Source: a virus. From it: a stretch of 64,000 nt of DNA. The position numbers were made by a program, and so were the translations under genes. The stretch covers positions 34,095-98,094 of IMG/VR virus record IMGVR_UViG_3300035698_005189; one strand, given 5' to 3'. The notes under the pieces are model-generated. The model saw only the letters and a list, made by a program, of their open reading frames with translations, was not told the origin of the DNA and did not search any database. Of the stretch, positions 8,975-41,256 are shown in pieces (position 1 is the stretch's first letter; the number at the start of each line of letters is the position of its first letter).

Positions 8975-9893
8975 CTTTGGTGACCTCGGCTACGACGCGA
9001 GCGGCGGCCTCATCGGCTGCAGCCTCCAGCATCGCGGAGAGGCGCTTGGCGTCCTCACTCAGTCGCTGAGCCCAGTTCTGGGCTCGTTGTACTACAGGAA
9101 TAGCTACGGCTGAGTCACCAGCGGCTCGTGTTTCGAGCCAGCGACGGAAGGCCCAGGCCTCAGGTTGTGCCTGCCCCATGGCTTCAGCGACGGCTTCAAC
9201 CAGGAGGGCGGTGCGCTCGTGTTCCCGGCTGGACCGGTCCCGGCGATTGTCTACCGCATCTTGAACAGCCCGACCCAAGACCTTCTCAGCGAAGGCTACC
9301 AGTCCGTCCTCGTCAATCGCCGCCCCAGCCAGGAGCCAGGAGGCCTTGCGCGGCACTGGCTTCGTCTCGCCGTGCAGGCCTGACCAGCCGGAAGCACGAC
9401 GGGCCACCGCGGCCAGGGTCTCACGGGGGACGGTGGAGCCGACGTCCCGCTGGGTGGCGTGCTTCTTGATGACGAGGCCACCACGGTTGAGCACCAGGAG
9501 CCCCCAGCCCTCTGGGACCTCGGAGATGTCGTTGACGACGCCCGGACCTACGGCGAACCAGCACTCGTCGCACATCTCCCTCATGAGGGCGCGCTTCTCG
9601 GGCTGGCGCAGCTCCCTGGTGAAGTCGCCACGCGATCTCTTGATCTCGTAGCCGATCATGCGGCCTCGGACAGCGCTCCAGCAGTGGATGGCCAGCACAT
9701 CCCACGACCGACTGGTCAGGCGGCCTTGGCCGGTGCCCGGAACGAACTCATCGAAGACGGCCCACTCACCGCGCTCCTGAGGGTGCCTGCCCCGTAGGAG
9801 GCCCCGTATGGCTCCCGTGCAGTCCACGGGCGGCCAGGGGTTTTTTGGGAGGCTCTTGTTTTTGACTGGGGGAGGGGGGACGGCCTTACCCAT
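8958..9893 (-). CDS. MmcB-like PD-(D/E)XK nuclease family protein
   Basis: WDVLAI...GYEIKRSRGDFTRELRQPEK...EVPEGWGLL; start at ATG 9893. Confidence 0.75.
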   Translation of the reverse strand: MGKAVPPPPVKNKSLPKNPWPPVDCTGAIRGLLRGRHPQERGEWAVFDEFVPGTGQGRLTSRSWDVLAIHCWSAVRGRMIGYEIKRSRGDFTRELRQPEKRALMREMCDECWFAVGPGVVNDISEVPEGWGLLVLNRGGLVIKKHATQRDVGSTVPRETLAAVARRASGWSGLHGETKPVPRKASWLLAGAAIDEDGLVAFAEKVLGRAVQDAVDNRRDRSSREHERTALLVEAVAEAMGQAQPEAWAFRRWLETRAAGDSAVAIPVVQRAQNWAQRLSEDAKRLSAMLEAAADEAAARVVAEVTKDDDPD

Positions 9894-11166
9894 GGAGATC
9901 TCCCCACCAGCTGACCACGTCGCCTGCGATAGCCTCGCCGACCTGGACACAGACAGCGTTGCCGGTCCCAGCGAGTCGGTCCTGGCGGTCGAGGGTGTCC
10001 TCGGGTCCGCCCCAGGTGGACAGGCTGGGAATGTCAGCCCAGGCCCGGGAGGGCGCATCGGCCATCGACTCGCCCTCGGCGGCGGTCCAGCCTTGCGGGA
10101 ACCCCATGAGCCACTCGTTGTAGGAGGGCTGCATGATCCCGCCGTCGTCTGGGAGCTTCGAGGGCTTGCGCTGGGCCTCCAGAAGCTGAGGGCCGGCTCC
10201 GCCGAGTCGTGGGTCCAGGTAGACGCCCCGCTCAGCGATCTTGCGGGCCGTCCGGTGACAGGTCTCGGTCATCACGAATGACCACAGACGACGGGCCTCA
10301 GCGAGCATGGCCGGGTAGTCCGGGAGCTTGGCCTTGCGGACGGCCTCAGCGATCTTCTGGACGTGGTAGGCATGGCCTGCCGTCGTCAGGCTCAGGTAGT
10401 TGTAGGCCTCGAAGCTGAATCGTCCGAAGGCGGTCGGCGTCGGGATGCCGTTGTGGTACGCGACGACGGAGGCAGCCTCGTGGGCCGGGAGTGAGGTCAG
10501 GGCTCCCTTCTCCCGGATCAGCCACCACGGATCGCACGCGTGCTTCGGGGTCGGGTGGAGTACTCGGCAGGTCGTCAGGACCCCCGACTCCCAGCGACCA
10601 GCCAGGGGCCAGTTGCCGTGGCGGCCCGGGATGGCTGATGTCTGGTGAGACACCTCCCAGACGGGAGGGAGGCCACGCTGGCGACCGATGAGGAAGATCC
10701 TGACCCGCTGGTGGGGTCCGCCCACAGCCGACACGGACAGGGGCTGCCATTCTACATCGTAGCCGTTGTCGTCGAAGGTGGTGAGGACGGCCTCGAGGGT
10801 CCGGCCCGAGTCATGCGCCACGATGGCGAACGGGTTCTCAGCCACAATAGCTGTCGCGCCCAGGGACCGGCCCAGTCGGATGTAGTCCCCCCAGAGCCAG
10901 CGCTCGTCATCCTGGCCCTTGCGGGGCCCGGCGTTGCTGACGGGCTGACACGGTGGGCCGCCTGAGAGGATGTCGCACTCCCCAAGGTCGGCTGCCGTGA
11001 CCTTGGTCACGTCGGGGAAGCGGACCACATCGGGCCAGTGCCGTCCGAGCACACGACGAGGGTAGTCGCCCAGCTCGATAAAGGCCGTATGCGACCCGCC
11101 TGCGCGATGCCAGCCCAGGGCGAGGCCACCGACGCCAGCGAACGACTCTACTACGCGGGGCTTCAT
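9886..11166 (-). CDS. DNA (cytosine-5) methyltransferase
   Basis: FAGVGG (I), GGPPCQ (IV), AENP (VI), HQRVRIF (VIII), GNAV (X); ATG 11166 coupled. Confidence 0.9.
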   Translation of the reverse strand: MKPRVVESFAGVGGLALGWHRAGGSHTAFIELGDYPRRVLGRHWPDVVRFPDVTKVTAADLGECDILSGGPPCQPVSNAGPRKGQDDERWLWGDYIRLGRSLGATAIVAENPFAIVAHDSGRTLEAVLTTFDDNGYDVEWQPLSVSAVGGPHQRVRIFLIGRQRGLPPVWEVSHQTSAIPGRHGNWPLAGRWESGVLTTCRVLHPTPKHACDPWWLIREKGALTSLPAHEAASVVAYHNGIPTPTAFGRFSFEAYNYLSLTTAGHAYHVQKIAEAVRKAKLPDYPAMLAEARRLWSFVMTETCHRTARKIAERGVYLDPRLGGAGPQLLEAQRKPSKLPDDGGIMQPSYNEWLMGFPQGWTAAEGESMADAPSRAWADIPSLSTWGGPEDTLDRQDRLAGTGNAVCVQVGEAIAGDVVSWWGDLHG

Positions 11167-11444
11167 GCGACAGCGTGCATGTCGAAGTCGAGAAGGGCCT
11201 CTCCCGGGACATCCTCTGCCATGCGGTCGGGCCCGATCCAGGCCTCCACAGCGACGAGGGTCTCTTCGCTGCCGCCAGTAGCTCCGGAGGTGGGGAGGGC
11301 GCCGTCGCCCGACTCCCCACCACGCAGCCACCAGCGGGAGTCGCCCTTGGCCTGCGCGTGACCGAGCATGAGCCGCTGTGGGCCTGGCTCCACGCCGAGG
11401 GAGCGTGCGATACGTCGGAGGCGGAGTTGATAGTCGTTGAGCAT
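11163..11444 (-). CDS. Hypothetical protein
   Basis: 93 aa, AGGAG RBS. Confidence 0.65.
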   Translation of the reverse strand: MLNDYQLRLRRIARSLGVEPGPQRLMLGHAQAKGDSRWWLRGGESGDGALPTSGATGGSEETLVAVEAWIGPDRMAEDVPGEALLDFDMHAVA

Positions 11445-11452
11445 GGAGTCTC

Positions 11453-13112: not shown

Positions 13113-13324
13113 GGAGCACTCCTAATAGCGAGTGGTGCGTGTCTTACTGCGTGGACGTAGATGGCAGCCACCCAGACGACCCCGGACTTATTGGGGATGG
13201 CCGGGGCGTTGAGGTCAGGCACGACCACGAACGAGCAACCAAAGGCGAACCCACCGCCACCCAGCCAGCCGTACCAGGCCTCTTGGTCCGATACGCCGCG
13301 CGAGATCTTGACCCGGATTCGCAT
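13109..13324 (-). CDS. Hypothetical protein
   Basis: TAATG-coupled start at 13324. Confidence 0.5.
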   Translation of the reverse strand: MRIRVKISRGVSDQEAWYGWLGGGGFAFGCSFVVVPDLNAPAIPNKSGVVWVAAIYVHAVRHAPLAIRSAP

Positions 13325-13893: not shown

Positions 13894-13956
13894 GACAGCC
13901 TTGGGGTCGGGGTCGGGCCCCCTGATCGTCGCCCCTCCCGACCCCGGTCCTGTCGC

Positions 13957-15162: not shown

Positions 15163-15519
15163 TCACAGGGCCCACGCGGTAAACATGCGTCGCTCGCGTG
15201 GAGTCAGGGTGAGGGCCTTGCGCTCCGCGTGGGAGGGGTGGTAGGCGTCGAAGTCGGTCACCGACCTGTCGAGGGCCTCCCGGCAGGCGCGGGCTGCGTG
15301 GGCCGCCGCGATACGGACCTCCGCCTCACGGAGGGCGCGGTTGGTGGCTTCGTCGGCGAACACGGCCTCATCGACATGCTCAGCCAGCACCTTGTCGGGG
15401 TCGGCCTTGGGCTTGGGCCGGCGGATGCCACAGCGCTGCGCGTAGGCCTGTCGCTTGCGAATGGGTGCCAGGGCTGCCTCACGGCGGGCCTTGGAGCGAC
15501 GTCGGCTGGTCTTACCCAC
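15163..15519 (-). CDS. Basic hypothetical protein
   Basis: 118 aa, overlaps upstream stop. Confidence 0.6.
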   Translation of the reverse strand: MGKTSRRRSKARREAALAPIRKRQAYAQRCGIRRPKPKADPDKVLAEHVDEAVFADEATNRALREAEVRIAAAHAARACREALDRSVTDFDAYHPSHAERKALTLTPRERRMFTAWAL

Positions 15520-15955
15520 GAGGCACCGCCGGGGCGGGGTACTCGCCCAGCTTCAGCGACACAGCCCAGAGGATGTACTCCCCGCGCAGTGGGATGCCCT
15601 TCGCCGACTTCTCCCCGGTGAGGGCGCGGCGGTTGCCGACCAGCCAGTACTCGAAGCGATCACGGTAGACAGCGACGTCTACCGACCCCATCTCGCTTTC
15701 GAGTTGGGCCGGACCCACGAGCGTCCCCAGTGGGAGGCTGTTCATGTCGGCTACGGTCTTACGAGTGTTTACGGCGCGGCGCTCGTCGACTCCACGCCTG
15801 AAGGGACCCATCCGCATTTCTACGACGCGGCCATCGTGGCGACCCCAGACTTCCTTCGTGGGGCTGGAGAGCTGGGTGTCCATGGTGGGGCGTCGCACTG
15901 GTGCAGGGGGAGGTGCGGAACGGGCGGGCGGGGGCGGGGGAGGTGGATGGTTCAC
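15512..15955 (-). CDS. Hypothetical protein with N-terminal Pro7 tag
   Basis: MNHPPPPPPPAR...; AGGA RBS. Confidence 0.65.
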   Translation of the reverse strand: MNHPPPPPPPARSAPPPAPVRRPTMDTQLSSPTKEVWGRHDGRVVEMRMGPFRRGVDERRAVNTRKTVADMNSLPLGTLVGPAQLESEMGSVDVAVYRDRFEYWLVGNRRALTGEKSAKGIPLRGEYILWAVSLKLGEYPAPAVPRG

Positions 15956-21941: not shown

Positions 21942-22351
21942 GGGTGCCTCCAGTCGACTGTCGGGTTGCAGTACTTCGGCCAGTCGTCGTACATCGACTC
22001 GGTGCCGGGGCCGATCGTGGGTAGGTCCAGTCCAAACTTAGGCAGGGGACGTCGCAGGTTCCCGTCGAGCAGCGACAGGATGGTTGAGGCGACGACGTTG
22101 GTGGCGGCCAGCCTGCGCTCTTCCTCGGTGTCCCCGGGTGGCGGTTCGTCTACTGCGTAATGATGGGCGATCATGGCCACGAGACGAAGGAAGTCCTCCC
22201 GAGGCGTGACGACCTCCGGGAGGACTGGTAGGGTAGGCTTGGCGACCGGTAGGGGCGGCGGGCTTGGTGGGGCGGGCGCTGCCCATACCGGAGGCGGAGG
22301 ACCTACGCTGGGTCGGGATCGGGAAGGTGGGGGCGGAGGTGCGCTACGCAT
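21926..22351 (-). CDS. Hypothetical protein with Pro-rich N-terminus
   Basis: MRSAPPPPPSR...; AGGAG RBS. Confidence 0.65.
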   Translation of the reverse strand: MRSAPPPPPSRSRPSVGPPPPVWAAPAPPSPPPLPVAKPTLPVLPEVVTPREDFLRLVAMIAHHYAVDEPPPGDTEEERRLAATNVVASTILSLLDGNLRRPLPKFGLDLPTIGPGTESMYDDWPKYCNPTVDWRHPWRKP

Positions 22352-23145
22352 GGGGGCTCCTGGGGCTCACCCTCTTCGTCGCCGCCGGGGGCTGGGGGCG
22401 TGTCGCCCCATCCCGTCTTCAGGGGCTGGTGATGGAAGCACATCGGCGGCGGCGGGTCGTCGGATGCGTGGGCCGCCACGACGAGGCCCGTACCCTTGGC
22501 GTCCAATTCGACCGTTGACCACGAATACTGCGGCAGACGGAACCGCGTCTCGAGGAAGGCGATCACGGCCTTCTCTTCGGCCTCCAGCATGGTGGTCGCG
22601 GTGTCACCCACGAGGGCATCCATCGCTCCCGGCGTCAGGAGGGATGGGTCCACGGCCAGGCCGATCTGCCGGTAGGCAGCTCTCGCGTACGACTCCACCA
22701 GGCGATGGCCAGTGAGCGGGTCCCGGTAGGGGTCATCCCACTCGGCCAGGTGCAGGACGGGGACGCCGACGCTCGTGGCGTAGGCTACCTCGTGCTGCAG
22801 GCCTTCGCTCGAGTGTAGAGGCGCTCCCTGCCAGAACTGATCGGCCAGGCCGATGAGGACTTCGTCATCCTTGAGCCAGTCGATGGCGGGGCGATCTGGG
22901 ATGAGTCCACCTTCGACCACGAGGTCGGTGTGAATCCACGACAAGACGACGTAGCCGGCGTTGATGGCCAGGCCGACGAGGCTCAGGTAGCGACCGACGT
23001 TCCGGTCATGATCCCCCCACTCCGGGATGCCGTCGCCGCGCAGGGGGTGGCCGATGTACACGGTCGGCTTGCGGAGCCGCTTGCGTAGGGTCTTGGGCTC
23101 TTCGTCTTCGGCGGTGGTCGGGTCGGGGATGACTTCGGTCTGCAT
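22303..23145 (-). CDS. DUF4406/DUF1937-like (NDT-fold) protein
   Basis: VYIGHPLRG...SSEGLQHEVAYATSVGVPV. Confidence 0.7.
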   Translation of the reverse strand: MQTEVIPDPTTAEDEEPKTLRKRLRKPTVYIGHPLRGDGIPEWGDHDRNVGRYLSLVGLAINAGYVVLSWIHTDLVVEGGLIPDRPAIDWLKDDEVLIGLADQFWQGAPLHSSEGLQHEVAYATSVGVPVLHLAEWDDPYRDPLTGHRLVESYARAAYRQIGLAVDPSLLTPGAMDALVGDTATTMLEAEEKAVIAFLETRFRLPQYSWSTVELDAKGTGLVVAAHASDDPPPPMCFHHQPLKTGWGDTPPAPGGDEEGEPQEPPCVAHLRPHLPDPDPA

Positions 23146-23150
23146 GGGGG

Positions 23151-24883: not shown

Positions 24884-25110
24884 GCTGGACTCCCGAAGCG
24901 GGCGGCGGTGCAGGCCTTGGCCGCCAGCTCGACGGTGACGACGTCGGCAGGAGACCCTTCGCGCTTGGCGACACGGGCCTGGGCGGCCAAGACTCTACGG
25001 ACTCGCCAGGGCAGTGAGGCGGCTGCCTCACCGACAAGGTCGTCGGCGTGGGACTCTGACGGTAGGGCCCTCAACGCGACACAGACAGGGCAGGTACACT
25101 GGGGGCTCAT
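24880..25110 (-). CDS. Small hypothetical protein
   Basis: 76 aa, CxCxxC, coupled both ends. Confidence 0.55.
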   Translation of the reverse strand: MSPQCTCPVCVALRALPSESHADDLVGEAAASLPWRVRRVLAAQARVAKREGSPADVVTVELAAKACTAARFGSPA

Positions 25111-25802
25111 TTTTCCTCCACGGCGACAGCGGTCGCCACGGTAACGGGGGCTGCGACGGCTCGCTTGGCGGCAATCTGGCGGGCGAGGGCTGTGTACTCG
25201 GCCTCCTCGAGAAGGTCGGGGACGGCGGGGCCCAGGGACCCTGTACCTGTCGCGGTTGCCGCCGCAGGTGCTGCCGCCTGCGCGGCGGTAGCGGCGGCTG
25301 CGGTGGCATCCGAGATCCGCTGTCGCTTGTCCGACCGATGCTTGTCCAGCCGGATCATAGCCGAAGCCATGCCCTCGAAGGTATTCGCCCCGACGGCGTC
25401 TTCGCCGGTCATCCTCTTCAGGCCCTCAGCCCAAATCGTATTCAGCTTGTCCAGCTCATCCAGCTCACGACCGACCGCGTCGCTGGCGGCGTAGGCGAGG
25501 ACGCGCCCCTGGATGTGCCTCCAGTGCGCTGCCCGGCGGTCAGGCCATCCGTCCCGGGTCGCCCTCTCAGCCGTACGGGGCAGGCTGATGACGTCCTTAG
25601 CTAATGCCGACTCGGGCCCGTCGATGCGGGTGGACTCCCACGCCTGCCGGATCGTTATGTCCGGGTCCTGCATGTAGGCCAAGAAGACAGCCATCACGGC
25701 TCGCTGTCCTGGCTTGCCTCCCCGCATGTCGATGACCGCGACCCCGCGCTCGAGTACTGTACGCGGGGGTGGGGGCGGGGGCGGGGTATGTCGCCGCCCC
25801 AC
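25107..25802 (-). CDS. Helical hypothetical protein (possible HTH) with Pro7 tag
   Basis: GTG 25802 after GGAGG; MGRRHTPPPPPPPR; RDGWPDRR motif. Confidence 0.6.
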   Translation of the reverse strand: MGRRHTPPPPPPPRTVLERGVAVIDMRGGKPGQRAVMAVFLAYMQDPDITIRQAWESTRIDGPESALAKDVISLPRTAERATRDGWPDRRAAHWRHIQGRVLAYAASDAVGRELDELDKLNTIWAEGLKRMTGEDAVGANTFEGMASAMIRLDKHRSDKRQRISDATAAAATAAQAAAPAAATATGTGSLGPAVPDLLEEAEYTALARQIAAKRAVAAPVTVATAVAVEEK

Positions 25803-25803
25803 G

Positions 25804-26493
25804 CTACCTCCGGACCGGGGGCGGGGGTGCGCGGTGTCGCTTGGGTCCGGTGAGCCACTCACGACCGAGGACGTTGATGGGGTTGCCCTTGGTGACTCGG
25901 TTGAACACCTGGCGCTGCTTCTCGCGGAGGTCGGTGAGGCGGAGGGTCCCGGCCCTGAGCTTGGCTTCGTCTATGACGACGGCCGCCACAGCCACGGCAT
26001 CGCAGAGGTCCTCTGCGACCGAGGGGTGGAGGTCAGCCAGGAGTGTCCGATCTGGGAAGTAGCGCACGGTCGCCTCCCGCATGTCGGGCTTGTCCGCGTT
26101 GGCGTTGTCGGCGACGTACATCTTGACTGATGAGGGGTCGATCGTCCTGAAGGGCCTGGAGGCCTTGTGGAGTGCCAGGCGACCGGCTCCGCCAATCTCA
26201 CCAGACTCGTGACCACGACCCGAGCCGAAGGAGTAGCCCTCCAGCCCGTAGAAGTCGGCCTCGGCGGCGGGGACCGCCACAGCCAGCCACGTCTCCACAC
26301 CCAGCAGTCGGTCCACGCCCCACTGCTCCTTGTCCTTTGTCGTACGCAGGAGGCGAGTTACCCTCCCGCCTCCCTTCTTCACAGCCGCCTGCGTCAGCGA
26401 GTAGGCCCACCAGTCAACCAGTAGGCCTGTGTGATAGTCCACGACAGCGATGGCTCCGTGGTTGGGGGATACGTCGAGTCCAGCTACCCTCAT
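25804..26493 (-). CDS. ruvC: RuvC-like Holliday junction resolvase
   Basis: GLDVS, LEGYSFG, PSSVK...ADK, DLCDAVAVA. Confidence 0.85.
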   Translation of the reverse strand: MRVAGLDVSPNHGAIAVVDYHTGLLVDWWAYSLTQAAVKKGGGRVTRLLRTTKDKEQWGVDRLLGVETWLAVAVPAAEADFYGLEGYSFGSGRGHESGEIGGAGRLALHKASRPFRTIDPSSVKMYVADNANADKPDMREATVRYFPDRTLLADLHPSVAEDLCDAVAVAAVVIDEAKLRAGTLRLTDLREKQRQVFNRVTKGNPINVLGREWLTGPKRHRAPPPPVRR

Positions 26494-29352: not shown

Positions 29353-30798
29353 TCACCTCGCCTCGAGGTAGAGGCCCCGGAGGGTCAGCCACAGCCGGGG
29401 GTCCTCAGACATGAGATTCGAGAGGGCGGTCCAGCCTCGGAATGACCGATTCGCTGCGCCCAGGATGGAGGGGTCTGTGAAGCTCGACCAGCCACCGCCG
29501 ACCCGGATGATTCCGCGCATCTTGAGGTCTTCGTATACAGCCCAGGCGTTGTCGGCACCACGACCGAAGATCAGGCCATACTTTTCGGTATGGAATGGCG
29601 ACTCGACCTTGTTCTTGGGAATCCTGATACGGACGATCTGCCCCATAGGTACGGGGTGGCTATCCTTGGCCGAGCCGGGAGGCAGGACTTCGCCGATCTT
29701 GTCAACCTCGATCCGGACGGTCGAGTGATACTTGATGCCGCCTCCGCCGTAGGTCTCGGACGAAGGCCCGTAGGTGTTGCGGCCCATCTTGATCGTCTCA
29801 TAGCGCTGGTTGACGAGCACAAAGGCGATAGCCTCATCATCGATCAGCTGGATGAGGCGTCGCAGGTTGGATCGGATGACCTTGGCAGCGGCTGCCGGGT
29901 GGACGTCGCGCGCCGAGCCCTCCAGCTCCTTCTCCGTGGGGGTGCCAGCGACAGAGTCCCAGGTGATGACCACCGGACGGTCGGCGGCTACAGCGAGTTC
30001 ATTCTCCCGCCCAGAGTTCCAATCCGACAGCGCGTCGGCCTTGTCTGCGGCGGTGTCGCCATACAGGATGACGGGGCGCAGCATCTCCCGGGTCAGGTTG
30101 TCCCTGATCCCGGATACCTGCATCCCTTCGTTTCGCTGAAACTGGACAAGGGCGGCAGACTGCTCACGACTCCACTTGGCGAAGGTGAACGAGGCGACCG
30201 TCTTGGGCTTGCCCTTGGGGTCGGCCGGGGGCTCGATGATCTTGTGTATGTAGGTCTGGGGCTTGCCTGGCTTGAGGCCTGCCCTCGCCATGGCAGCGAT
30301 CCAGGCGCGACAGTTGAGGTCGGCCAGCTGACGGGCCAGGACCTCGACCTCGTCAAACATCGACTCGACGGTGCGACCACCGACCCAGATCATCGAGTGA
30401 TCGAGGATGCCAAGGGTCCTCATGTAGGGGCGGGAGCGACCACGCTCACAGTCGGCCAGGACCGCCAGACCGCCGTCGGCCTGACACTGAGCCATAATCT
30501 GGTCGGCCATCGTGGACTTGCCTGCCCCGAACCAGCCAGAGATCTCGGTCACACGACCGAGGGGGATACCGGGGACCCCGAGAGCCCGGTCCAGTGCGAT
30601 GTTCCGGGTACCGACGAACCCACGCGGAGAGCCCAGGGTCTCGGACATATCCAGAGTTGTCGCCTGGTCCTCACCAAAGGCCTCCCGGAGGCTGGCAGCG
30701 ATGGACCTTGCCAGGGGGTCTACCCGCCGCTTGGGGGCAGCTGGTCGTGCTGCCTTAGATGGGCGCGGCGGGGCTGGCGGGGGTGGCGGTCGGGTCAA
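29353..30798 (-). CDS. recA: RecA/UvsX-like recombinase with ~115-aa insertion
   Basis: GRVTEISGWFGAGKST, WDSVA, VNQ, TYGGGGIKYHSTVRI, KNKVESPF. Confidence 0.92.
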   Translation of the reverse strand: MTRPPPPPAPPRPSKAARPAAPKRRVDPLARSIAASLREAFGEDQATTLDMSETLGSPRGFVGTRNIALDRALGVPGIPLGRVTEISGWFGAGKSTMADQIMAQCQADGGLAVLADCERGRSRPYMRTLGILDHSMIWVGGRTVESMFDEVEVLARQLADLNCRAWIAAMARAGLKPGKPQTYIHKIIEPPADPKGKPKTVASFTFAKWSREQSAALVQFQRNEGMQVSGIRDNLTREMLRPVILYGDTAADKADALSDWNSGRENELAVAADRPVVITWDSVAGTPTEKELEGSARDVHPAAAAKVIRSNLRRLIQLIDDEAIAFVLVNQRYETIKMGRNTYGPSSETYGGGGIKYHSTVRIEVDKIGEVLPPGSAKDSHPVPMGQIVRIRIPKNKVESPFHTEKYGLIFGRGADNAWAVYEDLKMRGIIRVGGGWSSFTDPSILGAANRSFRGWTALSNLMSEDPRLWLTLRGLYLEAR

Positions 30799-30953
30799 GC
30801 ATCACCTCTGATCTCTGCGATAAGGACCTCACGCTCGGCTTCCGTGAGGGCTGGAGGTCCTGGCCTCTCTGGCGACACGGCCTGGCAGGCGGTGGCCTCC
30901 GGACAGGGCCCGCAGGCTCTGTCGTCGGGCCACCACCTACCGAAGCACCTCAG
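30795..30953 (-). CDS. 52-aa Cys4 (putative Zn-binding) protein, CTG start
   Basis: xRCFGRWWPDDRACGPCPEATACQ...; CTGA overlap with ssb stop and TTGA overlap with recA start. Confidence 0.55.
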   Translation of the reverse strand: MRCFGRWWPDDRACGPCPEATACQAVSPERPGPPALTEAEREVLIAEIRGDA

Positions 30954-32494
30954 AAGGGCATGTCGCCGCCCGGAGGGACCGGGGGGCCGCTCGCACCTCC
31001 CGCAGCCGGCGGGGCGGGCGGACCGGGTCGCGCTGGGGCGGCGGGTGGACCCGACGACGGAGCGGCTGGCGGTCCTGGGGGAGCCGCCCGGGCGGGCGGG
31101 GCGGGAGGCCCGGCGGGAGCCACGGGCGGCGTGGGGGGACCGGCTGCCACGGGAGGCGGGGTCGGGGGCGGGGCTGGCTTGCTCCGGGCCACGAGCGCGT
31201 CGATGGCGGCCTTGACGTTCGGCACGCTGGCGGCGGGAGCCCAGTCGGCCATCCCATCGGCCCAGACGAGGTTGGGGGCGTCGGGGGCGTCGAGCACCTG
31301 GGCTGCGATAGCGCCGGCCGACTGGTCGGTCTGCGCGTCACCCAGCCCAGCGAAGTGGTAGAGCTGCTCGGTCTCGGCGGGGGCAGGGGGACCCTCTGGT
31401 GCGTAGCCACCGCCTGGCGCGTAGCCCGGGGGACCGTTGGCGAGGGGAGCCGTGGGCGCGGGTCGCTGAGCATTGACAGCGGCAGCGATCTCGGGCACGG
31501 TACCGGCGTCGACCCAGCCAGCCATCCCATCCGTCCAGACGGTGTGGGTCGCTCCCTCGGCCGAGCCCAGGACGATGCGCGCCACACCGACGGGGTCGAG
31601 GCCGTCGAACTTGCCTCCGGTGCCGTTGTAGTGGTAGGTCACGACCGATGCCGGGGGCGCGGCTGCGGGCGGTGGGCCTGCGGCGGGACGATGGGGCGTG
31701 GCGGGCGGGGGTGCCCCGGCGTCACCCATGCTGGGGCCGGTGCCTCTGGGGTCGAGCTTCCGGGCGGCGGTGGTCAGCGCGGTTGGGTCGGCCGCCTTGA
31801 CCAGCGACGACAGCTCGAGGGCTGCCTGCAGGATGGGCAGGTAGGCGTCGTCGAGGCGGCTGGAGTCGCTGCCTTCGGTGACCGCGTATTTGACGTCCAT
31901 CGCACGAGCACCGGTCTTCTCGACCTCGATCAGGATGTCGCGTCCGCTCTGGTAGTCCTCGATAGGTCCCTTGGCGACACAGATCCGGATCAGCCCGGCC
32001 TGGACGGTGGGCGAGTAGCCCATCACCTTGGGAGCCACGACCCAGCCGCCCTGCCCGTCTTCGGTCCAGTGAGACTGCGGGTTGTCGAGGTCGATGACGT
32101 TGCAGTACAGGCGACCGCGTGCTCCGATCTCCTTGGCGACGGCTTCGTAGTCGGTCCGCTTGGCCGCGAAAAGCTCACGGCGGAGGGCGCAGATAGGGCA
32201 GACCTTGGGGGCGGCGCGGTTGTCGTGGTCATCGGGGCAGGGCAGGTTCTGGAGGGCCCCGTCGATCTTGACCTTGTGGACGTAGGTACTCACCCAGAAC
32301 TTCGCCTCCGGGTTCGCTGTGTCGGGTGCTCCGTCGGACCCCTGCGGGAGGCGGGGGATGACGCGGACGCGGTTCGTGGTTCGCTGTCCCTTGCTGGCGG
32401 GGCGCTTGAACTCGAACCACGAGAAGTCGCCTCCGCCGCCTCCGCCGCCTCGCTGGGCAAGGCGCTCTTGTTCCTGTTCGTAGACACTGGACAT
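30950..32494 (-). CDS. ssb: gp32-like ssDNA-binding protein with two GYF_2-like domains
   Basis: NRVRVIP, H..CP..CPIC Zn site, RLYCNVID, GRDILI; two VWxDGMxxWxxAxxVP repeats; Pro-rich linkers; C-terminal DMPF. Confidence 0.85.
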   Translation of the reverse strand: MSSVYEQEQERLAQRGGGGGGGDFSWFEFKRPASKGQRTTNRVRVIPRLPQGSDGAPDTANPEAKFWVSTYVHKVKIDGALQNLPCPDDHDNRAAPKVCPICALRRELFAAKRTDYEAVAKEIGARGRLYCNVIDLDNPQSHWTEDGQGGWVVAPKVMGYSPTVQAGLIRICVAKGPIEDYQSGRDILIEVEKTGARAMDVKYAVTEGSDSSRLDDAYLPILQAALELSSLVKAADPTALTTAARKLDPRGTGPSMGDAGAPPPATPHRPAAGPPPAAAPPASVVTYHYNGTGGKFDGLDPVGVARIVLGSAEGATHTVWTDGMAGWVDAGTVPEIAAAVNAQRPAPTAPLANGPPGYAPGGGYAPEGPPAPAETEQLYHFAGLGDAQTDQSAGAIAAQVLDAPDAPNLVWADGMADWAPAASVPNVKAAIDALVARSKPAPPPTPPPVAAGPPTPPVAPAGPPAPPARAAPPGPPAAPSSGPPAAPARPGPPAPPAAGGASGPPVPPGGDMPF

Positions 32495-32496: not shown

Positions 32497-33171
32497 TTAG
32501 CTCCTGGGCTTCGGGGTTGGGGGTGGCGGCGGGCCGCCGGAAGTGCGGGCGGGGATGGGGGACCGGGGCTTCGCAGCCACCTCGTCCTCGAGGTCCGGCA
32601 GGGTGTCTGTTGTCCCGCCGTGGTAGGTGGCATCCTCGTCGCCACCGGGGGCGGGGGTGTCATCGCGGGGGGCCGCTCCACCTGAGCCGCCGGTACCCGA
32701 CCAGGACTGGATCGCCCAGCGCCGAGCGCGGGCGGCCTCGAGGGCACCGTACACGACCTCCCAGGCCTCCGTGGTCTTCGCCTTGAGGCCATAGTGGGTG
32801 CGATACTCGGGCAGGGAGCGAACGTACTTCTCCGAGGCCGATACCGCTGGGCACTTCGCCTTCGGCCCGGTGGCGCAGTCGAAGCCAGCGTTGACCGCCA
32901 TCTCGATGTCGTTGGTCAGGTCGTGGATGAGCGAGTCGCGCCAGATCCGGTAGTCGACGTCAGCCATCTCCTTGTCGCGGGCGGCGGCAGCCACCAGCCG
33001 GGCCAGTTCGCTGACCAGTTGTGGGGTCCGGTCGCCCTCGTGGTCGTGCAGCTCCGGGCTGATAGCGACCAGGGTAGCCAGGTAGGCTCCGGTGTACTCC
33101 CGCTCGCGCACGACGACGGGGGGCATTTCGATGAGGCCTGCAACCAGCAGACGGTGTGGGACTCGGCTCAT
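32497..33171 (-). CDS. UvsY-like recombination mediator (putative)
   Basis: Long helical protein between pol and ssb; EKYVRSLPEY...GALEAARAR pattern. Confidence 0.5.
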   Translation of the reverse strand: MSRVPHRLLVAGLIEMPPVVVREREYTGAYLATLVAISPELHDHEGDRTPQLVSELARLVAAAARDKEMADVDYRIWRDSLIHDLTNDIEMAVNAGFDCATGPKAKCPAVSASEKYVRSLPEYRTHYGLKAKTTEAWEVVYGALEAARARRWAIQSWSGTGGSGGAAPRDDTPAPGGDEDATYHGGTTDTLPDLEDEVAAKPRSPIPARTSGGPPPPPTPKPRS

Positions 33172-35231: not shown

Positions 35232-35593
35232 GCTGCGCCAGAAGCAGCGACACCCGCCCACGCGGCGAGCTGCCGACCGTAGGCGGGATCTGTCAGGGCT
35301 GAGGCGAGGTGGTCTGGCGTGACCTCCACGATACCAGCCCTCCCAGTGAGCGCTCCGACAAGGTGGACTGTCACTCCGTTGGCCACGAGCAAGACCTCTG
35401 CGACCGGCTCCCATCCGTCGCCGACGTCACCGAAGACGGAGAGGCTGAAGCCGTGGGGGGCCGGCAGGACTCGCGTCGTGTCGGGGGTCCGGGGGTCGCC
35501 CGTCTCCCGTCGCAGGTCAACCACAGTCACAGGTCGCGCCCTGACGTCAACACGATCAGGGGGGACTTCTCCGTAGCGGGTTTCACCGAACAC
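35228..35593 (-). CDS. Hypothetical protein
   Basis: GTG after GGAGG. Confidence 0.55.
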   Translation of the reverse strand: MFGETRYGEVPPDRVDVRARPVTVVDLRRETGDPRTPDTTRVLPAPHGFSLSVFGDVGDGWEPVAEVLLVANGVTVHLVGALTGRAGIVEVTPDHLASALTDPAYGRQLAAWAGVAASGAA

Positions 35594-35876
35594 GACGCCT
35601 CCTCGCTCGCAGCCCAAAGAAACGGCTGCCGCTGAGATACCTGTCGCCGGTGACTGCGTAGGTCACCTCGGATAGAGTCCGTACTCGACGACCCTCCCAC
35701 TGAAACCGCCACCAGCCATTTTTAACGACTGCGGCGGCGGTGTACTTGCCCTGGGTCCGGGGAGGCCTGATGATCGTCACCTCAACGAGGCGGCCCTTCC
35801 AGACGCGGCGGAGGACGGTTCCGAACGGGAGGTCTCGGGGGCGCAGGTCGACTGGGGGGCGCAGGGGGCCTGACAT
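35583..35876 (-). CDS. DUF2924 domain protein
   Basis: GTVLRRVWKGRLVEV...FQWEGRRVRTLSEVTYAVTG...SGSRFFGL; AAGGAG RBS. Confidence 0.85.
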   Translation of the reverse strand: MSGPLRPPVDLRPRDLPFGTVLRRVWKGRLVEVTIIRPPRTQGKYTAAAVVKNGWWRFQWEGRRVRTLSEVTYAVTGDRYLSGSRFFGLRARRRRVR

Positions 35877-36186
35877 TCGTACTCCTTTCCGGGCAGGTCG
35901 CACCACGGCGGCTACGCCACGACCCAGCGATGTAGTCCTGGTTCGCGTCCGACCACGCAGCCACAGCCTCCGAGTGAGAGCGACACAGGTAGGCTCCACT
36001 CTTATCGTGATACCCACAGCCGGCGCAGGTCGACTCCGCCTTCGGCCAGGAGGTCGAGGACGGGGTGGCCTTACGATAGCATGGCGGGGCGGGGACTGAC
36101 CTCTTAGCCGATGACCTACGGGGGGCCGGTGGCGGCGGCGTGGCGGGCGGAGCCCTGCGGGGCGGGGGAGGCGGGGGAGGCCTCAC
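35782..36186 (-). CDS. Pro-rich Cys-containing protein
   Basis: GTGA-coupled; MRPPPPPPPRR...CY...CAGC...C; overlaps DUF2924 gene by 95 nt. Confidence 0.5.
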   Translation of the reverse strand: MRPPPPPPPRRAPPATPPPPAPRRSSAKRSVPAPPCYRKATPSSTSWPKAESTCAGCGYHDKSGAYLCRSHSEAVAAWSDANQDYIAGSWRSRRGATCPERSTNVRPPAPPSRPAPPRPPVRNRPPPRLEGPPR

Positions 36187-36617
36187 GAGCCACGCGTCGG
36201 GGGAGGCGGGGGCCTCCGGACAGGGGATGGCGGGGCCTTCCGGGCGGGCGGGGCTGGTGGTGTCCGCTCGGGGTCGCCAAGGCGGGCCTCGACGACGTGG
36301 GCGGGGACTCCGCAGGGCGGACCTGCCTTGCCACTCCGGAGCAATCCAACGTAGCGACCGTCGCCGGACCAGCACGAGGGAGAATGGACGCAGCCTCCGC
36401 AGAAGTCATCCGCCGGGTCGTAGTCCTGTCGGTAGCAGGACGGGAGCCCCTCGACCCCGGACTCGCGCCCACGGATCAGGAGGATGTTTCGCGCACCCAG
36501 CTCGGACATTCCCTCGTAGTCGGCTTCGTCGATGCCGGCTTCGTCGAGTTCGGCGCGGGTCCCGTCGGTGATGGGTACGGCGGCCAGAGATGACAGATCA
36601 GCCTTCGAGTTCTTCAC
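36183..36617 (-). CDS. Hypothetical Cys4 protein with Pro5 C-terminal tag
   Basis: SCYRQDYDPADDFCGGCVHSPSC; GGAGG RBS. Confidence 0.7.
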   Translation of the reverse strand: MKNSKADLSSLAAVPITDGTRAELDEAGIDEADYEGMSELGARNILLIRGRESGVEGLPSCYRQDYDPADDFCGGCVHSPSCWSGDGRYVGLLRSGKAGPPCGVPAHVVEARLGDPERTPPAPPARKAPPSPVRRPPPPPTRGS

Positions 36618-37272
36618 GGTCGTAATCCTCCACGCCTACTTCGGCGGCCTGGGTGATGGAAGCGATCCCGAGGGACCGCAGATGGGAGACGGCGGCTTCC
36701 TTGGCGTGGGTGAGCCGCGCCGAGACCCGCCGGTAAGCGGGGGAGCTGGGCCGGTCGTGTATGCCGACCATCCGAGCGATGGCGGTGGCAGGCACTTCTT
36801 CAACGTAGCGCAGGTGGAGCAAGGCGAAGGCAGCGGGCGGGAGGTTGCGGCGGAGGGCGTAGACGAGACCCTCGCAGGCGGCCTCAAACTCAGACTCTTC
36901 AGCCGTCTCGTCGCCACGGGCAGGGGTCGGGTCCACAACGTCGACCGGAGTCTCGGTCCCGTCGGGGGCTTTCTGCGTGGTCCCACGGTCGGACTCGGGT
37001 CGGCCTGCGGCCTGAGTCGCCCGGACGATGGTCAAGAAGCGCCGTTTGGCCACGGTCGCCAAGAGGGCGTCGGTGGGGAGCCTGCCGACGGCGGCGTACT
37101 CACGCCGGGACGCCACCAGGATCGCTTCCATGATCTCGGCCTCGACGTCTGTCGCGTCCATCCCGACGCGATGGGGGTGCCACACGCGCCGGGAGAGGAT
37201 GCGGGCCGACGACTGCCACGCCACCAGGACCTCTGTCTCGCCTGGGGCGGGGTTCCTGTCTTCTGGCCTCAT
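36598..37272 (-). CDS. Phage sigma-70/ECF-like sigma factor
   Basis: Region-2-like DATDVEAEIMEAIL...VAKRRFLTIVR; region-4-like LPPAAFALLHLRYVEEVPATAIARMVG...RLTHAK. Confidence 0.75.
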   Translation of the reverse strand: MRPEDRNPAPGETEVLVAWQSSARILSRRVWHPHRVGMDATDVEAEIMEAILVASRREYAAVGRLPTDALLATVAKRRFLTIVRATQAAGRPESDRGTTQKAPDGTETPVDVVDPTPARGDETAEESEFEAACEGLVYALRRNLPPAAFALLHLRYVEEVPATAIARMVGIHDRPSSPAYRRVSARLTHAKEAAVSHLRSLGIASITQAAEVGVEDYDREELEG

Positions 37273-39671
37273 CGCTGCCTCCTTCCACCTGTGAGCAATT
37301 CCACCACGCGACCAAGCAGGCATCCGGTCAGGTCGCCTGCGTTGGGGATTCCGATGTAGCCAGTCGTGGCCCGCGTCCCGTCGCCTTCGACTTCCGGGTA
37401 CAGCTCCGCAAACTTCGCTGCGTTGCTCGGGTGGCCGGCGTCGCCGACGCCAAAGCCATAGACCTCGATCCCGGCCTCGGACACCTGCCTGACGACTTCG
37501 GGGAGGTACCAGTTCTCTGCGATGTGATCGTCTGCGCCACACGGCTCTCCGTCTGAGATGACGATCAGGACAACGCGACGGTTGTGACCTCCCGCCACGG
37601 CGGCTGCCTTGGCTGCCCAGAGGACAGCCTCGCCGTCGAGGTTCTGACAGTAACCCGTGGCTGAGCCGATGGCGTCTCCGTTGTCGGTACGACCTGGGGC
37701 GGCGACATGCACGCTCATACGAAGGGGCCAGGTCTGGCGACTCCACCGCAGCCGCCCGTTCTCCTTGGGGTTGGACCCCAAGCCGACCCCTAACTCGGTC
37801 GTGTGCCCGAGCACCATATGGTCGATGTTGGCGGCACGCAGGGCGTCGTGCAGCTGCTTGGCGGTCCAGACGGCATGACTCATGGGGGTGTCAGGGCTAC
37901 TGCAGTCGCCCATGGAGCCAGAGCAGTCGATGAGGATACCCACGAACGCAGTCTCGCCGCGTGCGGTGGTCGTCTCGGTGTACTCAGCCAGCCCACCGGA
38001 CGCAAGGCTACCAAGGGACTCAACGTCGAGTTCGTCTCCGTCGTTGAGTCCACGCAGGGTGATGGTCCGGCGGGAGTCGACCAGGGCGGATCGGACGCGA
38101 TCAGTCAGCTGACGCGACCCGGCCCCGAAGAAGTCACTCAGAACGGACAGCACCTTCGCCCCGGCGGTCCTGGCGTCGAGATCCTTGTGTGGCTCCACGA
38201 CGACGTCGAGGGCGGCCGACTTGGGGTCAATGGTGTAGATCATAGCGCCTTGCTCTTCGGCCATTTTGCCCAGGATGATCTCGTCATCTTCCTTGGGGGG
38301 CTGTGGGGTCTCGGTCAGAGCCTCCTTGGCGGCCTCACGGGTTTCGTCTGAGACGGGCTCATCGGACTCGTCCTCTGCGTCGTCACCGGCCTCGGACTCA
38401 TCGGACTCATCCTCTGCTTCGTCACCGTCCTCGGACTCATCGGAGCCTTCGGATTCGTCACCGTCAGCTTCCTCGGAGCCTTCGCCTTCTTCAGATGTGC
38501 CGGTGTCCTCGGACACACCTTGCTCGTCGCCCTCAACGGGGTCGCCGTCTTCGTCACTGGCCTCGGACTCGTCGGGGTCCCCGGCCTCGTCACCAGCCTC
38601 GGACTCATCGGAGTCTTCGGACTCTTCGCCTTCCTCGGGCTCGCCGTCCTCACCACCATCCTCGGACTCATCGGAGTCTTCGGACTCTTCGCCTTCCTCG
38701 GGCTCGCCGTCCTCACCACCATCCTCGGACTCACCGGGCTCGCCGTCCTCGTCCTCGGCGTCGTCACCAGCCTCGGGCTCATCGGACTCATCCTCTGCTT
38801 CGTCACCGTCCTCGGACTCATCGGAGCCTTCGGATTCGTCACCCTCGGGGTCGGCGTCTTCTTCGGACTCATCGGACTCGTCCTGCTCATCTCCCTCGTC
38901 GGAGGCCTCGGACTCGTCACCGTCCTCGGAGTCTTCGCCCTCACCTTCTTCGTCCTCATCGGACTCGGCGGAGTCTTCGTCTTCTTCGGGCTCTTCGTCT
39001 TCTTCGGGCTCGGGGGGAGGGGGCGGCTCGGCCAGCTCTTCGAGGCGGATGTAGGTCGCCAGGGCAGCGCTGTAGGCGTCGTGGACCGTGACAGCCGCCA
39101 GGCCTCGAGCGACCTCAGGCTGGATGGCATCCCAGATGGGCCTGATATCCTGGTGGACTCCGTCATCGCTCAGCTGACCACGACCCACGCGGGTCACGCA
39201 CTGCACCAGGGCAGCGATCTGGCCGGCGCGACCTGGGTCGGTCGGGGCCCCGCGTCCGGTCTTCTCGAAGATGTAGGCGTTCTTGTCGTCGAGGTGAGGG
39301 GCTGCGCCCGGGTACTCGAGGACCCACAGGCGTTCGATGCGGAGGTCTTCGTACCCGTTGAAGATCATATGGACGGCGTTAGCGACCTTGACGCCACGCT
39401 CGGCTGCCAGATCCTTGCTGCGGGACACACAGGCGTCGCCTGTGAGCTTGGCGTGGGCAGTCTCGTGGTCGAGAAGGCCGCGCCAGGCGTTGACCACACG
39501 GGGGTCGGACGGCTCACCGACGAAGGTCGGCAGGGCGATCTGGTTGGTGGTCGGGTTGTACTTGGCCCGGGTACCGCCGACAGCGACAGTGACGTCCGAG
39601 CGACCCAGGAGGGTTCGGACGGTGCGCTCGGCGGCATTCTCGAGGAGGTAGGTGCGTCGGTTGGTTCTCAC
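37269..39671 (-). CDS. cobT: CobT-like VWA protein with long acidic linker
   Basis: HETAH, NGYEDLRIE; MIDAS DCSGS, NLDGEA, VISDGEP. Confidence 0.85.
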   Translation of the reverse strand: MRTNRRTYLLENAAERTVRTLLGRSDVTVAVGGTRAKYNPTTNQIALPTFVGEPSDPRVVNAWRGLLDHETAHAKLTGDACVSRSKDLAAERGVKVANAVHMIFNGYEDLRIERLWVLEYPGAAPHLDDKNAYIFEKTGRGAPTDPGRAGQIAALVQCVTRVGRGQLSDDGVHQDIRPIWDAIQPEVARGLAAVTVHDAYSAALATYIRLEELAEPPPPPEPEEDEEPEEDEDSAESDEDEEGEGEDSEDGDESEASDEGDEQDESDESEEDADPEGDESEGSDESEDGDEAEDESDEPEAGDDAEDEDGEPGESEDGGEDGEPEEGEESEDSDESEDGGEDGEPEEGEESEDSDESEAGDEAGDPDESEASDEDGDPVEGDEQGVSEDTGTSEEGEGSEEADGDESEGSDESEDGDEAEDESDESEAGDDAEDESDEPVSDETREAAKEALTETPQPPKEDDEIILGKMAEEQGAMIYTIDPKSAALDVVVEPHKDLDARTAGAKVLSVLSDFFGAGSRQLTDRVRSALVDSRRTITLRGLNDGDELDVESLGSLASGGLAEYTETTTARGETAFVGILIDCSGSMGDCSSPDTPMSHAVWTAKQLHDALRAANIDHMVLGHTTELGVGLGSNPKENGRLRWSRQTWPLRMSVHVAAPGRTDNGDAIGSATGYCQNLDGEAVLWAAKAAAVAGGHNRRVVLIVISDGEPCGADDHIAENWYLPEVVRQVSEAGIEVYGFGVGDAGHPSNAAKFAELYPEVEGDGTRATTGYIGIPNAGDLTGCLLGRVVELLTGGRRQR
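38397..38843. repeat. Intragenic direct repeats encoding the acidic linker
   Basis: 63-bp unit x2.2 at 38597..38733; 66-bp duplication at 38397..38462 and 38778..38843. Confidence 0.9.
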
Positions 39672-39674
39672 AAG

Positions 39675-40265
39675 TCACTTCCTGGCTGCGTTGCGGCGGC
39701 GGAGGTAGGCGGCGTCATCGTCTTCGAAGGCTGGGACGTCGAGGTCGGGGGGCGGGGGGCCACCCTCGACCATGGGCGGCCGGTCGAAGGCATCGCACTT
39801 GCCGGAGGTGTGGGGGCCACCGCAGATCGAGCAGATGGGGCGAGGCGGGTTGCGCGACTTAGGCCCAACCGGCTCCACGCGGCTGCCGCCGATACCGTCG
39901 CTGACCTTGGCGTCGACCATCTTGGCAGCCTCGGCCCGGGCGAACTTGATGGCGGACTGACGGAGCAGGAAGTCGTGGTCGTGGCGAGCCCAGGTACCGG
40001 CGTAGCAGCCCGGATCACTGTAGCCGGCACCATCGGCGTCGTCGCTACAACCCGACCCGGTGAAGATCCAGTCAGCGACCTGAGCGAAGGTGCAGGGCTG
40101 GGTGGGCGTGGTGCCGTAGCTCTTCTCTTCGCCGGCGAACCAGTAGACCAGATAGGCCGACTCACGCTCGAGGACGACGGAAACCACGACCTGATTATCG
40201 AGGCCGATCACACGGTTGACGAAACACACAGCGGTAGCGTCAAGGGGTAGCCGAGTGACTCTCAT
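39675..40265 (-). CDS. Hypothetical protein with Zn knuckle
   Basis: CSICGGPHTSGKC; GGAGG RBS. Confidence 0.65.
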   Translation of the reverse strand: MRVTRLPLDATAVCFVNRVIGLDNQVVVSVVLERESAYLVYWFAGEEKSYGTTPTQPCTFAQVADWIFTGSGCSDDADGAGYSDPGCYAGTWARHDHDFLLRQSAIKFARAEAAKMVDAKVSDGIGGSRVEPVGPKSRNPPRPICSICGGPHTSGKCDAFDRPPMVEGGPPPPDLDVPAFEDDDAAYLRRRNAARK

Positions 40266-40266
40266 A

Positions 40267-41256
40267 TCATCCTCCAGCGAACAGGCGGCGGATCACTTCC
40301 GACGCGGCGGTACGCTCCTGCTCGGAGCGAATACGGTTGAGAAAGGCGTACTGTGCGGACTCGAGGACCCAAGCGGCCGAGGCCGTGTAGGTCCCGCCAC
40401 TGACGACGCCGATGGTGGCGGGCCCAGAAGCGACCCGGCGGCCCCAGTCAATGAGGGTACGGAACGACACACCACCAGACACCTGACCGCCACCTCGGAT
40501 GCGTTGGGCGACACGAATGAGGCCCTCCGCGTCCAGGTTGTGGAGGGCCGGCACTACGCCGGTAAGGGCGACAAGCTCGGAGTCGTTGTCGAGGTAGTCG
40601 ACCTGGAGGGTGGTCCCGAAGCGGTCGAGCATCGCTTCATTCGCGTCGGGGCTGGTCCCGGAGTACAGGTAGCGGTCGTTCTCCTGCCCCGCGCCGAGCA
40701 CGTTGTCGGTAGCGAATACCCGGAAGTCAGGATGACGATTGGCGTAGCGGACGGGGTCGGCATCCTCGAGCAGGACAGCACCGTCGGCCTCGAGGATGGG
40801 GAAAAGGCTCAGGGCGACATGCGGGGTCGCACCAGACAGCTCGTCGAGGACAAGCCACGCTCCCTCTTCCATCGCACGGGTGACGGGCCCGGGGACGAAC
40901 GTCGTGGCTCCGTCGGCGGCTGCCCGCTGGCCCTTGAGCTGCCGAACCGTCGTACCTACGTTCAGGTTCACGCGGTATACTGGGATATCGCAGCGAGCGG
41001 CAATCTGGAGGACGAGGGAGGTCTTACCCGACCCCTTGGGTCCAGCCAGCAGGACCGGCATGGGGGAGCCGTTGTCGTGTGGCCACGCGGACCATGCGAT
41101 CTCACGAACCAGCTTCTCACGAAAGACGTAGCCGGGGTCGATGGTCGGTACCTGGGGCGTGCGACCACCGGGGCGGCGGTGGAGGATGACGTCGATGTCT
41201 GGGATGGTGACGTGCGACGAGCGAGCCGGTGGAGGCGGGGGAGGTGTTCGGGTCAT
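40267..41256 (-). CDS. cobS: CobS/MoxR-family AAA+ ATPase
   Basis: GPKGSGKT, LVLDE, FATDN, AMLDRF. Confidence 0.9.
   Translation of the reverse strand: MTRTPPPPPPARSSHVTIPDIDVILHRRPGGRTPQVPTIDPGYVFREKLVREIAWSAWPHDNGSPMPVLLAGPKGSGKTSLVLQIAARCDIPVYRVNLNVGTTVRQLKGQRAAADGATTFVPGPVTRAMEEGAWLVLDELSGATPHVALSLFPILEADGAVLLEDADPVRYANRHPDFRVFATDNVLGAGQENDRYLYSGTSPDANEAMLDRFGTTLQVDYLDNDSELVALTGVVPALHNLDAEGLIRVAQRIRGGGQVSGGVSFRTLIDWGRRVASGPATIGVVSGGTYTASAAWVLESAQYAFLNRIRSEQERTAASEVIRRLFAGG

Follow-up and report, generated by a model that had tools for sequence, protein, structure and literature searches.

The virus record IMGVR_UViG_3300035698_005189 of IMG/VR comprises 98,094 bp with direct terminal repeats, and the window analyzed here is the 64,000-nucleotide stretch made up of its bases 34095-98094. 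The genome has a GC content of 66%, carries nearly all of its genes on the minus strand, and belongs to a clade of uncultured phages of about 100 kb (metagenomic genomes of 96–114 kb). We focus on the gene of a single-stranded DNA (ssDNA)-binding protein (SSB; 514 amino acids (aa), 30950..32494, minus strand), which encodes two GYF_2 domains, and on a set of short proline runs, termed tags below, that are located at the very ends of nine other proteins of this phage. An earlier note on this DNA had proposed that the former recognize the latter. Genes were called with a self-trained codon model, and starts were then refined by Shine-Dalgarno (SD) motifs and gene packing. Proline runs of at least four residues were catalogued in all six frames, and each claimed terminus was checked together with its upstream sequence. 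Tag coordinates are window coordinates on the minus strand.

The SSB consists of a Zn-binding core with the fold of phage T4 gp32 (residues 1-250), Pro/Ala linkers, the two GYF_2 domains and a Pro-rich tail of 83 aa. It matches phrog_1192 (6.5e-8) and scores 17.3 bits against PF08804 (cut-off 26.8), for which two orthologs reach 39.9 and 31.1 bits. The core is predicted by AlphaFold2 (AF2) with a predicted local distance difference test (pLDDT) value above 90, and a Foldseek search with this model finds gp32 of phages RB69 (2a1k, E 5.9e-9) and T4 (1gpc, E 1.7e-8) with a template modelling (TM) score of about 0.6 by target. All 16 sequences compared share the His/Cys3 zinc ligands H73, C86, C99 and C102. 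In a collection of 50,697 records, cultured-phage matches to the SSB are confined to its core (Bacillus SPO1-like phages, ~29%), and no cultured phage in that collection matches the region or the GYF_2 domain. Word-based homology searches gave 11 matches for the SSB and one for the sliding-clamp-like protein described below, and low-complexity words dominated them.

GYF_2 domain 1, the proposed tag reader, spans SSB residues 284-340 (31475..31645, minus strand), and domain 2 spans residues 376-431 (31202..31369, minus strand). The claim that the SSB carries two GYF_2-like domains held up: the whole protein scores 32.9 bits against PF14237 (cut-off 25.8), with matches in two stretches that a six-frame search with this profile also recovers, and domain 1 models as a GYF fold. 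One GYF_2 domain of an ortholog scores 28.7 bits. The AF2 model of domain 1 (pLDDT 90.6) has a beta-beta-alpha-beta-alpha topology, and its top Foldseek match is the GYF domain of bacterial GltJ (7z3c, probability 0.80, E 0.37), with the GYF domains of CD2BP2, GIGYF, Smy2 and Arabidopsis also among its structural matches (Z 2.7-4.2). Each of these matches is weak by itself, which is to be expected of a domain of 60 residues; jointly they are consistent with a GYF fold for the modeled domain. All of the nearest Atlas clusters of domain 1 carry PF14237 (TM 0.63-0.79). Domain 2 is 34% identical to domain 1 (alignment A4), a duplication that is uncommon in the clade: a hidden Markov model built from the clade detects the domain in every readable SSB ortholog, mostly as a single copy, as the tandem pair here, and as one N-terminal plus one C-terminal copy in the most divergent branch. 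Apart from the SSB of this phage, a second GYF_2 was seen in a single SSB among the relatives examined (P0092), where it is N-terminal. Strictly or almost strictly conserved in the phage domain are the aromatics Y/W10 and Y12 together with H40, W43 and W50 (alignment A4), all of which lie on or beside predicted beta-strands.

The Pro-rich tail (30953..31201, minus strand) contains six PPxP motifs and closes with an aromatic tip, GGDMPF*. Thirteen of 14 orthologs end in GPPxPPxPxGGxAF*. The tip itself reads GGxAF* in nearly all relatives (L004-L016) and ends in W in the most divergent ones, so that the terminal aromatic residue is invariant. Profile searches of the genome recovered no SH3_1, SH3_3 or WW domain, and GYF_2 is the sole recognizable proline-motif-binding module encoded by it.

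The genes flanking that of the SSB both encode tagged proteins. On one side lies the gene of a RecA/UvsX-like recombinase (481 aa, 29353..30798, minus strand; PF00154 4.4e-31, phrog_97 1.9e-46), which carries an N-terminal run of five prolines at 30775-30789, MTRPPPPPAPPR. Its start codon at 30798 is TTG, not ATG; it is the sole in-frame start and is preceded by the SD motif GAGGTGA. On the other side, a protein of 224 aa (32497..33171, minus strand) carries a C-terminal run of five prolines (32518-32532) behind a variable linker. This protein has no match in Pfam (where UvsY is PF11056) or PHROG searches; one of its structural neighbor clusters in the Atlas is 82% UvsY (TM 0.54/0.69), and its gene adjoins those of the SSB and the UvsX-like protein. 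The label 'UvsY-like' is to be taken as a structural lead only.

Four further tagged proteins have a recognizable relationship. A CobS-like AAA_5 ATPase (40267..41256, minus strand; PF07728 1.9e-22, phrog_249) begins at ATG 41256 behind the SD motif AGGAG and bears six prolines at its N-terminus (41227-41244). A RuvC-like Holliday-junction resolvase (25804..26493, minus strand; phrog_159 4.9e-22) ends with a run of four (25816-25827), and an MmcB-like nuclease (8958..9893, minus strand; phrog_5429 1.8e-17, marginal against PF06319 with 22.4 bits at a cut-off of 22) begins with a run of four (9867-9878), its ATG at 9893 overlapping the upstream stop by 8 nt. The fourth is a sliding-clamp-like protein of 395 aa (genome positions 33187-34374, minus strand; phrog_947 1.2e-18), of which the N-terminal part occupies window positions 1..280 and the C-terminal tag, KRKPPPPPPGG*, lies at genome position 33187, about 900 nt beyond the window edge. 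Three proteins without known function complete the set: one of 144 aa with a C-terminal run of five (36183..36617, tag at 36198-36212), one of 231 aa with an N-terminal run of seven (25107..25802, tag at 25764-25784; GTG start at 25802 with the strong SD motif GGAGGT) and one of 147 aa with a putative N-terminal run of seven (15512..15955, tag at 15926-15946), all on the minus strand. The GTG start of the 147-aa protein at 15955 lies 6 nt past the upstream stop and has a weak SD motif; this start fits the gene packing and is plausible, with no ortholog behind it. The catalogue thus holds nine tags. The earlier note had listed 11 terminal proline runs, eight of which stand (RecA, CobS, MmcB, the 231-aa and 147-aa proteins, UvsY-like, the 144-aa protein and RuvC); the clamp tag had been overlooked, and three entries, taken up at the end of this text, are not confirmed.

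Across the 107 called genes there are 16 proline runs of at least four residues, nine of which lie within 12 residues of a terminus. As such terminal positions make up 8.3% of all residues, this is a pronounced excess (binomial p = 1.3e-6), and shuffling residues within proteins yields 1.0 run in total and 0.09 terminal runs. None of the 48 virion or packaging genes is tagged, against 9 of 59 non-virion genes (Fisher p = 0.0035), and the called virion genes of the window are free of proline runs of this length, just as the earlier note had said. To define the motif, tags of at least four prolines were pooled from all clade genomes, with whole-genome tag counts of relatives drawn from two partial contigs (G001 and G002) and 20-kb loci. 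The 32 distinct tags give the consensus [KR][KR]x-P4-7-x[KR][KR]: 26 of them have a K or R among the three residues to the left of the run and 28 among the four to the right, compared to a background of 12%. In this genome, eight of the tags have V, A, T or R directly after the run, and the ninth, that of the clamp, closes with GG*. The PPG-hydrophobic core of the canonical GYF ligand (RxxPPGxR) is present in one of the 32 (KPPPPPGW in G002).

Internal proline runs stand in other contexts. In the CobT/VWA-like protein (37269-39671, residues ~216-235), for example, poly-proline is followed by an acidic run, EPPPPPEPEEDEE, and the ortholog at G002:20748-22940 reads EPPPPPPPPPPEEPEESE. This stretch belongs to a class apart from the basic terminal tags and is perhaps a rigid spacer.

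The tags are conserved in orthologs to different degrees. The tail of the UvsY-like protein keeps PPPPP in all nine aligned orthologs at about 35% identity while the linker before it varies in both length and sequence, and in a wider set every one of 13 orthologs has this PPPPP across a range of 54–68% GC. All four proline codons are freely used for these five residues, and mixed codons, also pointed out in the earlier note, are confirmed for the tags in general. A motif acting at the level of DNA was ruled out because synonymous codons vary while the amino acids stay constant. About 70 RecA orthologs (44–65% identity, 470–490 aa) begin with M-x-[KR]-x-PPxPP or PPPP, followed by K/R and a conserved helix, DPLARALA; since so many orthologs keep the motif ahead of this helix, the N-terminal extension is part of the protein and the motif is maintained by selection. 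Codon-usage scoring is unfit for such Pro-rich N-terminal extensions, as this ortholog-verified RecA extension itself scores −4.5.

For the remaining proteins, the G002 ortholog of the CobS-like ATPase begins with MARKAPPPPAPK, with two further orthologs having weaker basic/Pro N-termini; seven orthologs of the 144-aa protein close with Pro and K/R tails such as KPPKPRKRK*; and orthologs of the 231-aa protein start with PP(x)P followed by poly-K/R. Resolvases at the matching position are tagged at the C-terminus in G000, G002, L123 and L127, whereas shorter orthologs stop at the catalytic domain and have no tail, and the clamp tail of about 30 residues is absent from 76 homologs. That the resolvase and clamp tags sit on tails added in particular lineages fits what is expected of easily evolving motifs. 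Taken together, the sequence comparisons indicate that the tags are selected at the protein level, and with their conserved core, variable flanks and repeated gain they qualify as a short linear motif at the tip of disordered extensions.

In every clade member, covering 13 loci from IMG/VR and about 20 from metagenomes (RecA identity down to 44%), both tags and GYF_2 are present, whereas G004, G005 and about 100 other UvsX/RecA loci have neither. Relatives whose SSB lacks GYF_2 also lack tags, so the idea survives this check of the earlier note, as it does those on the PF14237 match and on base composition. The complete genome of G004 (107 kb, 67% GC, RecA 41% identical) contains ten proline runs of at least four residues and G005 (64.5% GC) contains two, none of them terminal, and tags are missing from RecA, SSB and the 231-aa protein in their outgroup versions. 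Base composition, the null explanation that the earlier note had named, fails on both sides: these GC-rich outgroups have no terminal runs, and clade members of 54–57% GC retain their tags. The outgroup SSBs end differently, with long YAPPP/QQYAPPP repeats and no GYF_2 in G004 (L089-L094, 5787-7325) and a classical acidic tail in G005 (L100-L104, 49173-50084), and the SSB tail is very plastic in the evolution of this phage group. When viral contigs were scanned with the GYF_2 alignment, only the same clade was recovered and no second lineage.

The tags are thus real, terminal and conserved, the GYF_2 domain is real and universal in the clade, and the two co-occur. We propose that the GYF_2 domains of the SSB read the terminal tags, an interpretation to which we assign a probability of about 0.5, the binding itself being the inferred step. 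SSBs organize replication, recombination and repair by recruiting partners. In the proposed mechanism, SSB bound to ssDNA would display its GYF_2 domains on flexible Pro/Ala linkers, and the domains would catch the tagged proteins and so concentrate them on ssDNA. The Pro-rich tail of the SSB itself, with its PPxPP repeats and aromatic tip, would probably be bound by the same domains in cis or in trans, and such a contact could result in autoinhibition or cooperativity, with the partners competing for the domain. The polarity of this arrangement would be opposite to that of the T4 gp32 and E. coli SSB hubs, in which the peptide is on the SSB and the pocket on its partners.

Several lines of evidence make this reading attractive. 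The tail of T4 gp32 contacts UvsX, UvsY and Dda (e.g. PDB 8gme), and the tagged set accordingly fits an SSB interactome; UvsX, the UvsY-like protein, the resolvase, the nuclease and the clamp resemble the known partner lists of gp32 and of bacterial SSB. The closest structural relative of domain 1 also provides a precedent for binding. GltJ, a bacterial-type GYF protein without the G-Y-F triad, binds a proline-rich sequence of AglZ via its beta-sheet with micromolar affinity, and this sheet is the most conserved surface in prokaryotic GYF domains (PMC11135422). When compared with that work, the conserved aromatics of the phage GYF_2 family map to the surface that GltJ uses for AglZ. Pro-rich flanking stretches are, moreover, frequent in bacterial GYF proteins (PMC2034487). 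A complex prediction for domain 1 (A2 278-345) and the C-terminal 40 residues of the UvsY-like protein (A3 81-120) gave a score of 0.03 (mark 0.32) and counts neither way.

A number of observations weigh against tag reading by GYF_2. In the six-frame search, the single GYF_2 domains score 22–24 bits, which is below the Pfam cut-off, and the structural matches of domain 1 are weak (Foldseek E 0.37; Z 3-4). The tags have no PPG core of the kind that defines canonical ligands of eukaryotic GYF domains. Several of them decay to Lys-rich PPxP tails in lower-GC relatives, and tails of this type could simply bind nucleic acid. Neither the CobS-like nor the MmcB-like protein counts among the classical partners of SSB. 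Finally, as the clade is single and monophyletic, the co-occurrence amounts to one evolutionary event, and an insert of about 100–115 residues in RecA co-occurs in the same way; it is just as clade-specific, because RecA has 470–490 aa in the clade and 395 aa in the outgroup G004.

The last point bears on what we consider the main competitor, namely that the tags are genuine docking motifs whose reader lies elsewhere, either in a conserved host protein or in a clade-specific phage module such as the RecA insert (~115 aa), with GYF_2 then serving only SSB self-association through its own tail. Co-occurrence is unable to separate features that are all clade-specific, as the RecA lengths illustrate, and bacterial GYF proteins often have Pro-rich flanks of their own (PMC2034487), as this SSB does. 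We nevertheless consider a separate reader unlikely, if worth keeping in view: the genome encodes no further known proline-motif reader, the tagged proteins are typical SSB partners, and the clade spans 54–72% GC and probably diverse hosts, which favors a reader carried by the phage. It is less likely still that there is no specific reader, and that the tags are flexible basic Pro/Lys/Arg tails with an electrostatic affinity for DNA or RNA or a role as spacers, similar to the Lys/Ala-rich tails of nucleoid proteins. The strongly basic forms in lower-GC relatives (MRRPPAPPKKRKSRKKK and KPPKPRKRK*) and a Lys/Ala-rich N-terminal tail at the equivalent place in the RecA of outgroup G004 speak for such a role, but it leaves three facts unexplained: the invariance of PPPPP amid variable surroundings in the UvsY-like protein, the tags of this genome that have just one or two basic residues, and the absence of such tails from outgroup orthologs.

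Two explanations do without any ligand of the tags. Runs of at least three prolines stall ribosomes in the absence of elongation factor P (EF-P), and the tags, several of which fall within the first ten codons, might impose EF-P-dependent translation and in this way throttle the expression of replication genes. We find this very improbable, as four of the nine tags are C-terminal, the flanking K/R residues are conserved, relatives keep weakly stalling PPxP variants, and the tags tip disordered extensions and accompany a Pro-binding domain. The tags might also have arisen as a side effect of GC-rich composition or of C-tracts in the DNA, or reflect wrongly called gene ends. The C-rich coding strand does produce many proline runs in non-coding frames, and two of the 11 tags listed earlier were frame or start artifacts; on the other side stand the shuffle and positional nulls, the GC-matched outgroups without terminal runs, the conservation at 54–57% GC with varying codons, and the ortholog-verified termini. 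For the core tag set an artifact is already refuted, and for the set as a whole it has next to no chance of being right.

Recognition of the tags by the SSB, as we propose it, can be placed among known systems. The phage SSB shares with gp32 of T4 and RB69 the Zn-binding core fold (Foldseek E 6e-9 to 1e-5) and the genomic company of PolA, UvsY-like and UvsX-like genes; for T4, a role of the SSB as recruitment hub is established. Unlike gp32, it has no acidic tail: GYF_2 domains (one or two) and a slightly basic, Pro-rich tail take up that region, and under our proposal the polarity would be the opposite one, the reader belonging to the SSB and the peptide to its partners. A disordered tail with an aromatic tip and a proposed role as a hub for recombination and repair enzymes are reminiscent of E. 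coli SSB (tip DDDIPF) and of the C-terminal Phe of T7 gp2.5, but the phage tail is not acidic, and it is the partners that bear the conserved motif here. GltJ of Myxococcus (7z3c), the closest match in structure, comes from the same type of Pfam family without the G-Y-F triad, although the similarity is weak (E 0.37 and Z 3.1 in structure, E 0.33 in sequence); it is a motility protein of the membrane that contains a ZnR-linker-GYF switch, whereas the phage domain is fused to an SSB and has many terminal tags as its proposed ligands. With the eukaryotic GYF domains of CD2BP2, Smy2 and GIGYF the phage domain shares the fold family and poly-Pro ligands flanked by Arg/Lys, as in the CD2 tail, but the phage tags lack the PPG-hydrophobic core and bacterial GYF domains bind via a different surface (PMC11135422).

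Our literature search yielded no publication that describes GYF_2 in phages or a fusion of SSB and GYF. The parts are known (the SSB hub, GYF with proline motifs, and short linear motifs); their combination and the reversed polarity are new. In every studied case that we know of, a tail peptide on the SSB is met by a pocket that has evolved on each partner. If the proposed mechanism is correct, one reader on the SSB would instead serve a cheap and easily evolving peptide tag on each partner, and the phage could add enzymes to its replisome merely by letting them gain a tail, a possibility to which the resolvase and the clamp point. A function would thereby be proposed for a viral GYF domain for the first time, and for GYF domains of the bacterial type for only the second. 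The terminal motif of four to seven prolines between positive charges would, in addition, provide a signature for spotting replication-associated proteins among the ORFs (open reading frames) of unknown function in the clade. The hypothesis is directly testable with peptides and a domain of 60 residues. An extension of it is far more doubtful: two GYF_2 domains, about six PPxP motifs in the tail and nine tagged enzymes might together make up a multivalent network on ssDNA and assemble by themselves into a compartment for replication and recombination that has no membrane, with the tag as the sorting signal that lets in DNA-metabolism proteins and keeps virion proteins out. This idea is speculation from the multivalency visible in the sequence.

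Related phages display a further kind of terminal peptide. A distant SSB homolog (P0095) ends in ...ADDIPF*, and tips similar to the C-terminus of bacterial SSB are found on a UvsY-like protein (...PTSDDIPF*), a clamp homolog (...DDNEIPF*) and a 240-aa protein (...DGIPF*) at loci listed together with P0095 (L130:1430-2137, P0128 and G001:22607-23329). The presence of IPF-type tips on proteins other than SSB suggests that related phages may use a second kind of terminal docking motif.

The three entries of the earlier list that fall away lie in two regions of the window. The start read as MRSAPPPPPSR (22351) is doubtful, as the gene would then overlap its upstream neighbor by 49 nt and the coding score is negative; with the alternative start, GTG at 22180, the tag is lost. 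The 'Dam-like' ORF ending in ...SGPPPR* (23151-24014) has PPP only and no PHROG match. This minus-strand ORF of 287 aa overlaps the start region of the 313-aa gene (22303-23244) by about 94 nt, and the gene caller put a doubtful plus-strand ORF in the 23151-24014 region instead.

The third entry, MRPPPPPPPRR (36186), was taken from a frame with a coding score of −20.9 that overlaps, in a different frame, the ortholog-supported DUF2924 gene at 35583-35876. Its ORF was rejected as a tagged gene: it lies within 35877..36186 on the minus strand, which is apparently non-coding, with negative scores in all frames. The gap of about 300 nt between the 144-aa and DUF2924 genes (35877..36182) contains several C-rich tracts and likewise has negative coding scores in all frames. 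In the relative L005, the same two genes are about 60 nt apart, as judged from ORF coordinates.

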